This document shows, piece by piece, positions 19,249 through 40,308 of a stretch of DNA of 64,000 nucleotides (its first letter is position 1; the number at the start of each line of letters is the position of its first letter). A program made the position numbers and the translations under genes. This DNA is from Escherichia virus TH42: the sequence record MT446413.1; one strand, written 5' to 3'. Under the pieces are notes generated by a model, which saw only the letters and a program-made list of their open reading frames with translations, ran no database searches and had not been told where the DNA came from.

Positions 19249-19327
<79 letters not shown>

Positions 19328-36424: not shown

Positions 36425-37503
36425 TGGCAAATGAATTTTTAGACCCAAACGATTTTAAATCATTCCTCCAACTTGATGACTTGAAAGGATCTTTTAAAGA
36501 AGACCTAAGTCGATTAGAATCTGAACAAGAACCAGAAGTGGACATTGACAGTGAGTTTCCAGAAGATACTGGAGATAACTTTGACTTTGATTCCGACCTT
36601 CTCGGTAAGGGTGATGAACTCACGTTCGAAGATGAAGAAGGATGGGATGATTCAGAAGAGGAAGGAGAAGACGATGAAGGTGATTCAGACGACGACTCTG
36701 ATGAAGTTGTTGAAGATGAAGAACCAAGTGATGTAGATCACGATGATTCTACTGACAGTGAATACGAAGAAGGTGACGCTTTCGACGTAGATTATGAAAC
36801 TGTTATCACCCTTCCTGATGGTCGTGAGATGACTATTGAAGAGTTATCAAATGGCTATGTTACTGGCTCCGATATGACTGAACGGGAAGCTGTTCTTCAG
36901 CGTCATGTTGAAGCTTTTGAAGAGCGTGTAGGTGGTTTAGCGGATGTATTAGAATTAGCGTCCTTAGAAGCAGACCGAGTAATTGAAGATTATAACGGTT
37001 TTGATTGGGACAAGCTAGCAGTTGAAGATCCACAAGCCTATGTTGAAAACAAACGCTTTTTAGAGAAGTACACTGCTCGTCGTCAGCAGCTTGAACAAGC
37101 GCAAGTTAAGATCAAGCAAGATGCAGCAGCAAAAGAACAGCAAGCCTTCCAAGCTAAATGTACCGAATGTGTTAATGTATTGAAACGTGAAATTCCTAAT
37201 TGGGATGACAGTGTTTATCAGAATCTGATGCAATATGCAATTGATCTCGGTGCTACAGAAGAAGAAGTCTTGAAAGAGAATCGTCCGTCTATTTTCCTAG
37301 CTTTGCACAAAGCATACCAATTCGATAAAGGTAAGCAACAAGTAATGGCTAAGATTAAACGTCCGGGTTCTCCACGTAAGGTTGTGAAGTCCGACTCTTC
37401 TAAGTCTCGTACTTCCAATACGCCAGACAACGCTAAGGTTGCCAAGGCATTTTCAGAGGGTCGAATTCGTCACGAAGATGCATTTAAGTATCTCGTAGAT
37501 TAA
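36424..37503 (+). CDS. scaffolding protein
   Basis: 359 aa; extremely acidic N-terminal half (poly-D/E), helical C-terminus; directly upstream of capsid gene. Confidence 0.5.
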   Translation: MANEFLDPNDFKSFLQLDDLKGSFKEDLSRLESEQEPEVDIDSEFPEDTGDNFDFDSDLLGKGDELTFEDEEGWDDSEEEGEDDEGDSDDDSDEVVEDEEPSDVDHDDSTDSEYEEGDAFDVDYETVITLPDGREMTIEELSNGYVTGSDMTEREAVLQRHVEAFEERVGGLADVLELASLEADRVIEDYNGFDWDKLAVEDPQAYVENKRFLEKYTARRQQLEQAQVKIKQDAAAKEQQAFQAKCTECVNVLKREIPNWDDSVYQNLMQYAIDLGATEEEVLKENRPSIFLALHKAYQFDKGKQQVMAKIKRPGSPRKVVKSDSSKSRTSNTPDNAKVAKAFSEGRIRHEDAFKYLVD

Positions 37504-37543
37504 TCGACAAATTATTTTTAAATAGTATAGGAGCTAACATAAC

Positions 37544-38602
37544 ATGGCAAATCCAACTTTATTTGTATCTTACGACCAGAACGGTAAAAAACTTTCTTTT
37601 GCTAACTGGATTTCTGTCCTCTCTCCGCAAGATACTCCGTTTGTGTCTATGACTGGTAAAGAGTCTATCAACCAGACTATTTTCAGCTGGCAGACCGATG
37701 CACTGGCAAGTGTTGATGCTAACAACGCACACGTTGAAGGCTCTCGCGCTGATGACGGTGAAATGCAACCGACTGTTATCAAATCTAACGTAACTCAGAT
37801 CCTGCGTAAAGTAGTTCGTGTTTCTGATACTGCTAACACCACCGCTAACTACGGTCGTGGTCGTGAACTGATGTATCAGCTGGAGAAGAAAGGTAAAGAG
37901 ATTAAACGTGACCTCGAGAAAATCTTGCTGTCCGGTCAGGCTCGTACCGACGTTCTGGCTGACCAGTATCTGACTAACTCAGCAGCTGATCCTGCTCTGG
38001 CTGGTCTGAATGACACTCATGCAGCTCGTAAGACTGGTGCTTTCCAGTTCCTGTGTGCCCATGGTGGTCTGTCTGGTAGCGTTGTTGATAAGACTAAGAA
38101 CGGTCCTGCTGACCCGGATACCGGTGCAGTAACTGTTAAAGTTGCACAGAACGCATCTAACCCTACCACTAACGTAGGTTTTGATGAAGCAGATATCTTT
38201 GATATGACCCTTCAGCTGTATACCGCAGGTTCTGAAGCTGATATCATCATGATTAACCCTGCTCACGCTAGCGTTTTCGCTAAGCTGCAGGAAAACTCTG
38301 TTGGTTCTCGTCAGCGTATCTTTGAGAACACTAAACAATTCATCTACGAAGTTAATAGCATCACCGACCCGCTGGGTCAGAGTTATAAAATCATCGTTAA
38401 CCGTTGGATGCCTACTGATGCAGTTTACTTCTTCCGTAGCTCTGATTGGACGCAGATGGTTCTTCGTGCACCGAAGCGTACTGAACTGGCTAAAGACGGT
38501 TCTTACGAGAAGTGGATGATCGAGATGGAAGTTGGTCTGCGTCACCGCAACCCGTATGCTTCCGGTGTTCTGTTCACTGCTGCGGGAAAGGTAGCGGCGT
38601 AA
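37544..38602 (+). CDS. major capsid protein
   Basis: 352 aa; position after scaffold; strong SD; slippery heptamer and stem-loop at 3' end leading into an Ig-like frame. Confidence 0.6.
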   Translation: MANPTLFVSYDQNGKKLSFANWISVLSPQDTPFVSMTGKESINQTIFSWQTDALASVDANNAHVEGSRADDGEMQPTVIKSNVTQILRKVVRVSDTANTTANYGRGRELMYQLEKKGKEIKRDLEKILLSGQARTDVLADQYLTNSAADPALAGLNDTHAARKTGAFQFLCAHGGLSGSVVDKTKNGPADPDTGAVTVKVAQNASNPTTNVGFDEADIFDMTLQLYTAGSEADIIMINPAHASVFAKLQENSVGSRQRIFENTKQFIYEVNSITDPLGQSYKIIVNRWMPTDAVYFFRSSDWTQMVLRAPKRTELAKDGSYEKWMIEMEVGLRHRNPYASGVLFTAAGKVAA

Positions 38603-39405
38603 CAGTTGACAGCGTAACTGTTAGCCCTGCGTCAGTGGCAAGTCTACTGACCGGGGCTACCCAACAGTTTACAGCTCAAGCAGAACTAAGCGACGGCTCC
38701 ACATCAACTACTGGCTTTGATTGGTCAGTATCCGGTGGTGGGGCTATTTCTGCTTCTGGACTGTTCACTGCTCCGGGTTCGCCTCAAACCGCTGATATCA
38801 CAGTGACTGCTACGCTTAAAGGTGTATCAAGTACTGCCGTTATTTCGGAAATTAAAGCTCCAATCCCTGACCCAGCTTCCATTGCTGTAACTGGGGGTGG
38901 TCTAACTGGTGATACTCTCACCATAACTGTTCCAGATGCTACCAGCCTGACTGCTTCTGTATCTCCTGCTGGTGCACCTCAAGGTGTTACTTGGGAAATT
39001 GCAGATCCGACTAAGGCTACGGTAACAACTGCTGGTCGTGTAACTGCTGTTGCAGCAGGTAGCACTACCCTTACAGTTAAATCTTCTACTAAACCTTCTG
39101 TCACTAAAGTGATTAATGTTGTTGTCAACCCCCAGCCTCCAACTATCGCGGCTAAAGCTGCTATTACTGGAAAATCTGGTGGAGACAGTGTCGCTTTTAC
39201 AGACATGTTTACTGTTCAACGCTCAGCTGCTAGTGACTATAATTTTGTAGTAACTCCATCTGCTGCTGGTACAGTGAATGCTGCTGGTCAGCTCACTTTA
39301 GCTGGTACGGCTAGCGGTAACGTAACTGTTAAAGCTACTCATAAAACTCAGACCTCAGTAACTGCAACTTCTACTATCACTGTTGTGGAATCAGGGTTAC
39401 CCTGA
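37544..39405 (+). CDS. predicted capsid-Ig-like fusion produced by -1 programmed ribosomal frameshift at 38584-38590
   Basis: -1 frame ORF 38512..39405 encodes Big_2-type Ig-like repeats and has no start context of its own; G_GGA_AAG heptamer 12 nt before capsid stop; stem-loop 38600-38623. Confidence 0.45.
38584..38623 (+). other. -1 frameshift signal (slippery heptamer GGGAAAG plus downstream 8-bp stem-loop)
   Basis: GGGAAAG at 38584-38590 in capsid zero frame (G GGA AAG); hairpin TAACAGTT/AACTGTTA with 8-nt loop starting 9 nt downstream. Confidence 0.5.
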
Positions 39406-39467
39406 GAACTGACCTAGGTTCTACAGTGTTCAAAACTTACACCATTAAATCTGGTGCTTAAAACTAA

Positions 39468-39492
39468 GGCTGCCTTCGGGTGGCCTTTTCTC
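39468..39492 (+). terminator. intrinsic terminator after capsid/Ig-like ORF
   Basis: GGCUGCC-UUCG-GGUGGCC then UUUUCUCAUUUU. Confidence 0.55.
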
Positions 39493-39519
39493 ATTTTAAG
39501 ACCCTTATAAGGAGATATG

Positions 39520-39528
39520 TAATGTATT
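39520..39528 (+). promoter_or_regulatory. candidate phage-sigma-dependent promoter motif (TAATGTATT)
   Basis: TAATGTATA-like motif ~35 nt upstream of 39562 gene, just after capsid terminator. Confidence 0.35.
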
Positions 39529-39561
39529 CTCTTTGTCTATACATAACTAGGAGGACACACT

Positions 39562-40308
39562 ATGGCAATGCCTGAAGTTCAGTATCCTATCAATACCTAT
39601 GGCTGGCTTAAAAAGGCTGTGTCACTCTGGGCCGATAGGGATGATGGTGAATTTGTAGATCAAATTCCAAACTTTATTAACTTTGCAGAGAAAGAAATCT
39701 ATCGTAACTTACGAATCCCTCCTCTGGAAAAAGAAGTATATTTAGATATCAAGGATGGTATTGCTTTTATCCCTCCTGACTTTTTAGAAGCACAGTGGAT
39801 TATGAGAGCTTCAAATGGAATGATGTTCAGAGTAACCTCTCCTGAAGAACTTGACTGGTTGAAGAGAAATAACTCAGTCAACCCATCCAATTGGAATCAA
39901 GGGGAAGTTGTTTTTGCTCGTTTAGGTAGTCGGTTTATGTTCTACCCTCTAATTGATGCAGATACTCCTGTTTATCCTGATGATGGAGCACCTGAAATCC
40001 CTGCTGAGAATGCTGTAGTTTTAAGTTATTATGCAGACCCACCGGAGTTCCACTCTGATGAAGATACCAGTGCTATTCTAACTATTGCTCCTGAGCTGCT
40101 TCTATATTTTACTCTGCGTCATGCTTCTTTATTCGTTCAAGATGATAATGGAGTTCAAAAGTGGTCAGCACTTGGTAAAGCAATCCTTGACGAGATTGTG
40201 GAGCAGAGTAAGAAAGCAGAATACTCAGGTTCCCCTCTAGTAATCCCTAATACTATTAGCCGTCTTAATAGCTCACGAGAAGTGTACGGCATTCGTAGAT
40301 ACAGATAA
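39562..40308 (+). CDS. virion structural protein (head-tail joining or tail tube candidate)
   Basis: 248 aa ORF between capsid and tail fibre genes. Confidence 0.45.
   Translation: MAMPEVQYPINTYGWLKKAVSLWADRDDGEFVDQIPNFINFAEKEIYRNLRIPPLEKEVYLDIKDGIAFIPPDFLEAQWIMRASNGMMFRVTSPEELDWLKRNNSVNPSNWNQGEVVFARLGSRFMFYPLIDADTPVYPDDGAPEIPAENAVVLSYYADPPEFHSDEDTSAILTIAPELLLYFTLRHASLFVQDDNGVQKWSALGKAILDEIVEQSKKAEYSGSPLVIPNTISRLNSSREVYGIRRYR

Follow-up and report, generated by a model that had tools for sequence, protein, structure and literature searches.

Capsid-gene −1 programmed frameshifting has already been published for the phage group considered here, in phiEco32 (2008), SU10 (2014), Privateer (2021) and YF01 (2023). 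The phiEco32 work, as relayed by the papers that cite it, described the slippery heptamer, the capsid gene and an Ig-like extension. In SU10, GGGAAAG and the resulting fusion were reported together with a 55.4-kDa ‘9+10’ product identified by mass spectrometry (PMC4281155), and in Privateer two capsid bands were observed and analysed by mass spectrometry (PMC7881722). The GGGAAAG capsid frameshift with an Ig-like extension was also described for YF01 ‘and other group phages’ (PMC9965538). The longer capsid isoform is reported in virion proteomics of SU10, Privateer and, according to the citing papers, phiEco32 (PMC4281155, PMC7881722, PMC9965538); cryo-EM and SDS-PAGE of SU10 revealed no extended isoform (PMC9509320). 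In the SU10 sequence a 1-nt insertion brings the −1 frame to a stop after 11 codons (PMC9965538), so the extension is dispensable.

The locus analysed here lies in a 64,000-nt stretch of Escherichia virus TH42 (record MT446413.1; ‘the window’), whose positions are used throughout; all features described are on its plus strand. With the Kuravirus-like phages (phiEco32 gp11-12, SU10 gp9+10, YF01 gp8) and Privateer it shares the SU10_MCP capsid family, the GGGAAAG heptamer, the position at the end of the capsid gene and a Big_2-type extension. The region is 97% identical in nucleotide sequence to that of Bas88. The present result confirms rather than discovers the capsid frameshift.

Three other systems resemble the locus in part. 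In gene 10A/10B of T7 and T3, also short-tailed E. coli phages, a −1 shift occurs late in the major capsid gene, with a measured efficiency of roughly 10%; the capsid protein belongs to another family, the T7 slip site differs and the T7 extension is short. The T7/T3 shift yields a longer form of the capsid protein as a minor component; this form is displayed on the head and is not essential (PMC9965538, PMC7881722, PMC13370021). Lambda G-T uses the identical heptamer, G_GGA_AAG, and the same host translation apparatus; the shift takes place in the gene of a tail chaperone instead of a capsid gene, and yields an assembly factor that is absent from the virion. The lambda shift is not known to need a strong downstream structure. 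Its efficiency is ~3.5–4% (quoted in PMC9965538). Phages of the 7-11/GAP52/SeKF_80 type (Grimontviridae) likewise have short and long homologous capsid forms, the long one with a C-terminal extension, but these come from two or three tandem paralogous genes with an in-frame fusion (SeKF_80, 589 aa) and involve no recoding.

The capsid gene and its slippery heptamer

The major capsid protein gene (37544–38602, 0 frame) encodes a 352-residue protein of the HK97 fold, which matches Pfam SU10_MCP (PF17236; 1e-78 over residues 12–344) and the SU10 major head protein (PDB 7z45; ~95% identity, 9e-229 over residues 1–352) and is assigned to PHROG 1328. By these sequence matches it qualifies as a Kuravirus-like (Gordonclarkvirinae) major capsid protein of the SU10_MCP family. 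The local gene order (portal, scaffold, capsid, Ig ORF, adaptor, tail fibre) is that of phiEco32 and SU10.

The slippery heptamer G_GGA_AAG at 38584–38590, already pointed out in a sequence-only reading of the window, can be read directly in the capsid ORF. Counted from the capsid start at 37544, the codons at the site are GC-G GGA AAG, the required X_XXY_YYZ phase. That reading had placed the heptamer 12 nt before the stop; the spacer, GTAGCGGCG, is 9 nt long and leads to TAA at 38600–38602, the figure of 12 being obtained by counting through the last base of the stop. In Privateervirus, which also keeps GGGAAAG, the heptamer abuts the capsid stop, in contrast to the 9 nt found here.

The motif as such shows no enrichment: the window has 9 copies, where 7.2 would be expected. 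The capsid-site copy is the only GGGAAAG that lies in phase within a long ORF of the window. XXXYYYZ occurs in phase at 34 sites within long ORFs of the window, and at these the open −1 run has a median length of 6 codons; it reaches 271 codons at the capsid site and 59 at the next-longest. In an alignment of 16 distinct Kuravirus-type junctions from four Kuravirus clades, GGGAAAG is unchanged in all 16, while synonymous and third positions near it vary. The capsid gene has 23 glycine codons, 21 of which are GGT, and its one GGA is the slip-site codon. Conservation of the heptamer at the nucleotide level thus exceeds the demands of the encoded protein.

Taken together, this comparative evidence is strong and argues for a −1 programmed ribosomal frameshift in the capsid gene, very probably of the kind characteristic of phiEco32/SU10-type (Kuravirus-like) phages. 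The frameshift interpretation had been advanced from the sequence alone; it is supported by everything that can be tested at that level (heptamer phase, a long −1 ORF, nucleotide conservation and the absence of a separate start) and by conservation across relatives. Most ribosomes would read GGA-AAG and three further codons (V-A-A) before stopping at TAA 38600, giving a 38.6-kDa capsid protein. A minority would move back by one base at G_GGA_AAG, where the glycine tRNA would re-pair with GGG and the lysine tRNA, of which E. coli has a single species, with AAA. Continued translation in the −1 frame, ending at TGA 39403, would add a Gly/Ser linker and three Big_2-type Ig-like domains, for a fusion of 64.7 kDa. 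The efficiency is probably a few percent, as judged from lambda G-T and T7 gene 10. The fusion would co-assemble through its HK97-fold body and would carry the Ig-like domains outside the prolate head. Transcriptional slippage was rejected, a long homopolymer run being absent, as was a dnaX-type upstream stimulator, with no Shine–Dalgarno-like sequence visible in the 20 nt 5′ of the heptamer.

The −1 frame extension and its Ig-like domains

The −1 frame is open from the heptamer to 39405, as the sequence-only reading had stated: the extension ORF (38590–39405) comprises 271 sense codons from 38590 and ends at TGA 39403–39405. The two frames overlap from the heptamer to the capsid stop (38590–38602), a stretch in which the −1 frame encodes a Gly/Ser linker (GSGV). 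Substitutions in this overlap across the 16 junctions keep glycine or serine in the −1 frame, whereas the 0 frame receives V, A, G or E; 3-nt insertions in some clades leave both frames intact. The predicted fusion has 620 residues and a mass of 64.7 kDa, slightly below the ~66 kDa initially proposed, and its junction peptide, ...FTAAGK-GSGVTVDS, agrees with the earlier prediction. An intrinsic terminator lies 3′ of the extension ORF (39466–39487), at a place matching an annotated terminator of SU10, and the interval from the capsid stop to the Ig ORF contains no terminator-like site.

The extension matches PHROG 13745 (‘Ig domain containing protein’, 3e-48), and the whole −1 product matches Pfam Big_2 (PF02368) at 4.8e-15 and 55.7 bits, above the gathering cut-off of 22.8 bits; the Big_2-type repeats recognized earlier are thereby borne out, as three domains. 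With the extension split into thirds, Ig-like domain 1 (38590–38871) scores 5.3e-5 and 23.5 bits, above the cut-off, and domain 2 (38872–39132) 7.8e-10. Domain 3 (39133–39402) is Big_2-like, its score of 1.8e-3 and 18.7 bits falling below the cut-off, and has support from its fold, the AlphaFold model being all-β with pLDDT > 90. Its sequence matches the T5 tail tube protein pb6 in that protein's C-terminal part (residues 354–464, E 0.004). Beyond domain 3, and to some degree domain 2, the AlphaFold model of the extension lacks confidence; homologues in the AlphaFold database begin at internal codons and leave domain 1 uncovered. Foldseek searches with the domain model returned tandem Ig-like arrays with low TM-scores, which indicate the general class only. 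Mucin and heparan-sulfate binding by the Kuravirus ES17 was considered as a clue to the function of the extension and rejected, being attributed to the tail fibre.

Sequence comparison adds two points that are new here. Among relatives the extension comprises anywhere from 2 to 6 domains, its length being 271 residues here, 178 in phiEco32, 370 in TH43 and ~540 in YF01 and Bas88, with a premature stop in SU10. Second, a terminal domain of ~100 residues, present in Bas88, TH43 and EK010, has been lost in the present lineage: alignment with these three phages shows that TGA 39403 was created by a 1-nt indel, and an out-of-frame remnant of the ancestral C terminus, TDLGSTVFKTYTIKSGA*, persists at 39408–39461.

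This loss, the disappearance of the whole extension in SU10 and the spread in domain number are what might be expected if the frameshift site were a decaying relic, at which ribosomes may still slip but whose three-domain product is functionless or unincorporated. Such decay is nevertheless very unlikely. The remaining three domains are intact and 95% identical to those of Bas88, and dN/dS for the extension is 0.16–0.25 against Bas88, L041 and Bas87 (ungapped comparisons with TH43 and EK010, invalidated by an indel, were left out), values at which the extension is, by this measure, under purifying selection. An independent metagenome contig, L041, has the identical ending, TITVVESGLP*, with more domains upstream; the truncated form is therefore an established variant and not a fresh lesion. 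Phages of the phiEco32 type manage with two domains, and also without that terminal one.

RNA structures and candidate starts downstream of the heptamer

The stem–loop noted in the sequence-only reading, H1 (38600–38623), exists as described: its arms TAACAGTT (38600–38607) and AACTGTTA (38616–38623) form 8 perfect base pairs around an 8-nt loop, starting 9 nt after the heptamer and including the capsid stop codon. Covariation lends no support to a stimulatory role. Seven of the H1 pairs are invariant in the 16 sequences and the innermost is broken in 8, with no covariation among them. Stimulatory RNA structures are a common though not an obligatory feature of −1 sites and lie 5–9 nt downstream. 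H1, at 9 nt, is the only helix at such a distance; it is AU-rich, and it is shifted to 12 nt from the heptamer in clades with a 3-nt insertion.

H1 is also out-competed thermodynamically by a longer hairpin. The minimum-energy fold and the RNAalifold consensus both contain H2 (38622–38659), a 16-bp hairpin with one bulge and a 5-nt loop, in which 92% of alignment cells are paired and one pair occurs as UA in 7 sequences, AU in 5 and GC in 4, with zero mismatches. H2 is prolonged by H3, pairing 38611–38621 with 38664–38676, where one pair shows weak covariation (AU 9, GC 4). The resulting 66-nt hairpin, H2+H3 (38611–38676), begins 20–23 nt downstream of the heptamer and has a minimum free energy of −36.7 kcal/mol (z −3.7); for the window sequence, this fold is better than H1+H2 by 4.4 kcal/mol. 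H1 and H3 are mutually exclusive, the 3′ arm of H1 (ACTGTT) being reused by the long hairpin. This predicted competition between H1 and a more stable, conserved hairpin with some compensatory changes is new here. None of the published accounts consulted mentions H2+H3, the SU10 paper proposing a small hairpin only, and a permissive search of 38450–38800 matched no Rfam family.

H2+H3, which is conserved across Kuravirus clades and has one three-way compensatory pair change, may belong to the recoding site as an RNA element with a function of its own, a possibility we consider less likely than not. Because the ACTGTT arm is common to both and the folds exclude each other, H1 and H2+H3 could form a switch that sets the number of capsid subunits carrying an Ig-like arm. 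The small hairpin proposed for SU10 in 2014 (CUGCUGC/GUAGCGG, 38577–38597; PMC4281155), which holds the heptamer as its 7-nt loop, was rejected as a stimulator: the 81-nt segment folds no better than shuffles (z −1.3), and a decoding ribosome would already have melted it. The long hairpin also buries a spurious GTG codon at 38635.

This GTG lies in the −1 frame, 45 nt past the junction, and is used as a start in GenBank records. The sequence-only reading had overlooked it in stating that the Ig-like frame lacks a start codon and a ribosome-binding site; the codon is unconserved and has no Shine–Dalgarno sequence. An Ig-like ORF translated as an independent gene, from GTG 38635 or by termination–reinitiation after the capsid stop, would supply a free decoration protein of ~25 kDa bound non-covalently to the capsid. 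Existing annotation points that way: a separate CDS is recorded in Bas88, EK010, phiEco32 and SU7, gene callers split the ORF off in the protein collection (P0003, 256 aa, 100% identical), and the SU10 structural study considers that gp10 may be a free, minor protein of the capsid (PMC9509320).

An independent gene is very unlikely all the same. Annotated starts differ between clades, that of each clade being a non-start codon in the others, and no start codon conserved across clades was found, nor any with a Shine–Dalgarno sequence. The first in-frame start lies 24, 45, 99 or 138 nt past the junction depending on the clade, with Shine–Dalgarno energies of −2.1 kcal/mol or weaker; at GTG 38635 the energy is +1.3 kcal/mol, compared with −5.9 to −10.2 kcal/mol for six neighbouring genes. 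In the SU7 record, ribosome-binding sites are marked for the displayed neighbouring structural genes, whereas the Ig ORF has none. GTG 38635 sits within the conserved stem H2, conservation at the protein level starts at the heptamer, 5′ of all candidate starts, and the unique GGA codon and invariant heptamer would be left unexplained.

Meaning for Kuravirus-like capsids

In most GenBank records of this phage group, those of Bas88 and EK010, the closest relatives, among them, the Ig ORF still stands as a gene of its own with an arbitrary start. The practical value of recognizing the frameshift is in annotation, as split records hide a 65-kDa capsid isoform from proteomic searches and structural work. 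The site could in addition serve as a natural low-copy display position, comparable to gene 10B in T7-type phages. To the published frameshift the present comparison makes a modest addition: an extension of 2 to 6 Ig domains that has been lost repeatedly, and sister genera in which duplicated paralogues provide the same short and long forms. These observations support the view that the capsid arm is an exchangeable, dispensable accessory.

The capsid gene junction

The junction lies within a structural gene cluster on the + strand at 33.9–43 kb, in the order portal, small ORF, acidic scaffold, major capsid, Ig-like ORF, adaptor and tail fibres. The major capsid protein gene (37544–38602, +) matches Pfam SU10_MCP (1e-78), its product shares approximately 95% identity with the major head protein of SU10, whose structure is solved (PDB 7z45), and the adaptor protein matches Pfam SU10_adaptor. 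Across 37400–39600, nucleotide identity is 97% to Escherichia phage Bas88 and 92–96% to TH43, EK010 and Bas87; over the first two thirds of this segment it is ~87% to phiEco32 and SU10. This gene order, the SU10-type Pfam and PDB matches and the identities to relatives show that the source is an E. coli podophage of the Kuravirus-like group (Gordonclarkvirinae), whose head is prolate. No terminator was found between the capsid gene and the Ig-like extension, the single one (intrinsic, 39466–39487) lying 3′ of the extension. Bas86 (locus L024, 4168–4680) has an inserted HNH endonuclease gene that separates the Ig ORF from the adaptor gene and is absent from the window and the other relatives. 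Elsewhere in the window, Rfam calls a tRNA at 19249–19327 (−), scoring 36.4 bits against a gathering score of 29 bits, which ARAGORN did not find; in the alignment its D-arm is nearly absent, at 4 nt rather than 15, the variable-arm position holds an insertion of 20 nt and the anticodon is apparently UCU (Arg).

The heptamer G_GGA_AAG, which the sequence-only reading had placed in the capsid ORF, occupies 38584–38590, and the frame from 37544 (GC-G GGA AAG) confirms its X_XXY_YYZ phase, nine nucleotides before the TAA at 38600–38602. Past the slip, the −1 reading GGT AGC GGC GTA... (GSGVTVDS...) is open, as claimed, to the TGA at 39403–39405; it spans 271 codons, giving a fusion of 620 residues and 64.7 kDa, next to a normal capsid product of 38.6 kDa. 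The heptamer by itself is no more frequent than chance (9 copies in the window, 7.2 expected); its context is more than chance. The capsid-gene copy is the only in-phase GGGAAAG inside a long ORF in the window. Window ORFs of at least 150 codons contain 34 in-phase XXXYYYZ sites in total; the median open −1 run at these sites is 6 codons, and the longest after the 271 codons here is 59. The slip-site codon is the only GGA among the 23 glycine codons of the capsid gene, 21 of which are GGT.

Conservation of the junction and the start of the Ig-like ORF

The set of junctions drew on 14 records of phages, 5 contigs from IMG/VR and 15 from metagenomes, the last retrieved with an anchor within the capsid gene that leaves the heptamer outside. 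In all Kuravirus-type sequences (16 distinct junctions, four clades), an in-phase GGGAAAG precedes the stop by 9 or 12 nt, and in every one but SU10 the −1 frame then stays open over 178–545 codons. In Privateervirus (P59, vB_CsaP_009; 57% capsid identity), GGGAAAG directly adjoins the TAA and the −1 ORF has 169 codons. Third positions vary in 5 of the 7 codons upstream of GCT GCG GGA AAG and in none of these four. Within the 9–12 nt separating heptamer and stop, variants keep Gly/Ser in the −1 frame (GSG, GGG, GGS, GSGG) and read V/A/G/E in the 0 frame, showing that selection acts on the −1 frame, starting at the heptamer. The dN/dS of the extension is 0.16–0.25 against Bas88, L041 (a metagenome contig) and Bas87.

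In the major head gene of SU10, the genome paper identified ‘a potential ribosomal slippage (GGGAAAG)’, joining the head protein to an Ig-like domain ‘as in phage phiEco32’, and listed a ‘9+10’ product of 55.4 kDa by mass spectrometry (PMC4281155). Privateer has the same signal and two capsid bands, with mass-spectrometric detection, in a paper that states the frameshifted product to have been seen in phiEco32 and SU10 (PMC7881722). The heptamer and an extended isoform were also reported for YF01 ‘and other group phages’, with isoforms of ~500–550 and up to 892–894 residues (PMC9965538). The SU10 cryo-EM structure shows no extension (PMC9509320), an absence attributed to the −1 frame meeting a stop after 39 nt (PMC9965538); in our alignment this stop results from a 1-nt insertion. 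The same insertion (L003, 3700–3730) also turns H1, a stem-loop discussed below, into a perfect 11-bp hairpin (TAACAGTAGAC/GTCTACTGTTA). The proposed fusion of capsid and Ig-like extension is thus supported by comparative evidence and by published relatives, and we conclude with high confidence that the window site is the Kuravirus-type capsid frameshift, which is already known and not novel.

Independent initiation of the Ig-like ORF was weighed from its possible starts. The claim that the −1 frame has no start or ribosome-binding site near the junction stands as regards Shine–Dalgarno sequences and ATG, of which there is none for ~200 codons in the window, but not as regards GTG, one of which lies in frame at 38635. 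The only candidates, GTG at 38512, 38635 and 38803, have Shine–Dalgarno pairing energies of −3.4, +1.3 and +0.6 kcal/mol, against −5.9 to −10.2 kcal/mol for six neighbouring genes. Across relatives, the first possible start falls 24, 45, 99 or 138 nt from the junction depending on the clade, each being a non-start codon in the other clades, and none in any clade examined has a Shine–Dalgarno sequence. The Ig-like ORF accordingly appears, from its sequence, to have no translation start of its own. Public records (L001, L002, L022, L026) give it differing, non-homologous start codons: phiEco32 and SU7 use GTG at +24 nt, Bas88 and EK010 use GTG or ATG at +45 nt, and SU10 uses an ATG that lies far downstream of these. 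In the SU7 record, the flanking structural genes shown have annotated ribosome-binding sites, and the Ig ORF has none. These inconsistent starts point to a frameshift product that has been systematically mis-annotated.

RNA structure around the slip site

The 8-bp stem-loop noted from the sequence (H1, TAACAGTT/AACTGTTA, 8-nt loop) is present at 38600–38623, but offers no covariation evidence, because 7 of its 8 pairs never vary across 16 sequences and the innermost one is disrupted in 8 of the 16. Its distance from the heptamer is 12 nt in the clades that carry a 3-nt insertion. The segment 38591–38680 is predicted to fold into a different and far more stable structure (−36.7 kcal/mol, z −3.7, none of 200 shuffles as good), composed of a 16-bp hairpin, H2 (38622–38659), extended by H3 (38611–38621 paired with 38664–38676). 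As H3 uses the ACTGTT arm of H1, the two are mutually exclusive. H2+H3 is the RNAalifold consensus of the 16 sequences and the minimum-energy fold in 13 of them, and in the window it is better than H1+H2 by 4.4 kcal/mol. One H2 pair occurs as three Watson–Crick types (U-A 7, A-U 5, G-C 4, zero mismatches), a synonymous Ser third position co-varying with a Leu/Glu/Pro second position; there are also several G-C to G-U changes in H2 and one weakly compensated pair in H3 (A-U 9, G-C 4, unpaired 3). This variation, which amounts to about two independent double changes across the four clades, suggests that H2+H3 is a selected RNA structure. Its base lies 20–23 nt from the heptamer, beyond the usual stimulator distance.

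A 7-bp hairpin (CUGCUGC/GUAGCGG, 38577–38597) that presents the heptamer as exactly its 7-nt loop was proposed for SU10 in 2014 (PMC4281155) and is also present in the window. This segment folds no better than shuffled controls, and the frameshift-site RNA matches no Rfam family. The identical heptamer of lambda G-T works largely alone, and by analogy the heptamer here may be largely sufficient by itself. The lambda G-T shift efficiency is quoted as ~3.5% (PMC9965538).

Ig-like domain number and sister groups

The Big_2-type repeats described in the −1 frame were recovered as three Ig-like domains of ~90 residues each, with Pfam Big_2 scores of 5e-5, 8e-10 and 1.8e-3 (the last sub-threshold) and a match of the extension to the PHROG ‘Ig domain containing protein’ (3e-48). 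Domain 3 has a match in the C-terminal part of pb6, the T5 tail tube protein, and its model is a confident β-sandwich similar to tandem Ig-like arrays such as those of LigA, intimin, the SU10 nozzle protein (chain 7z4b_DW, recognised by its length of 910 residues) and chain 9e99_K from a reconstruction of the N4 capsid. Across relatives, the extension ranges from 178 to 545 residues, equivalent to two to six domains: 178–180 in phiEco32, SU7, NJ01 and KBNP1711, 264–271 in NC-B and the window, 370–372 in TH43, EK010 and L039, 437–459 in L037, L041, Bas87 and Bas86, and 541–545 in Bas88 and L036. The window extension matches Bas88 residues 1–266 at 95% and then ends. Bas88, TH43 and EK010 share a terminal domain of ~100 residues ending ...TVKSGA; in DNA alignment with these three it is mostly deleted in the window, where the TGA at 39403 arises from a 1-nt indel, and the ancestral ORF's last 17 codons and stop (TDLGSTVFKTYTIKSGA*) are retained out of frame at 39408–39461, just before the terminator. 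The resulting ending, TITVVESGLP*, also occurs in metagenome contig L041, and is therefore a circulating variant rather than an assembly error.

Aeromonas-phage-type loci (L009–L011, L033, L035) have a ~168-codon, Big_2-like −1 ORF overlapping the capsid stop, but no XXXYYYZ heptamer at the capsid gene end; in its place is CUG AAG GUA AAG GCG UAA, with a GC-rich hairpin (GCGCCC-CUAC-GGGCGU) 6 nt after, making G_GUA_AAG a candidate non-canonical slip site. Escherichia phage PJNS034 (L020; 43% capsid identity) has an in-phase CCCAAAA 3 nt before the capsid stop, a 132-codon −1 ORF and a strong 10-bp hairpin ~20 nt downstream, and may represent an independent capsid frameshift. Phages of the 7-11/GAP52/SeKF_80/BUCT695 type instead carry two or three tandem capsid paralogues (L017, BUCT695; L018, SeKF_80; L019, GAP52; L014; L013/L031), one of them short and one with an in-frame C-terminal extension (589 residues in total for the SeKF_80 paralogue). 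Paralogue duplication thus gives these sister genera both a short and a long capsid form without recoding.
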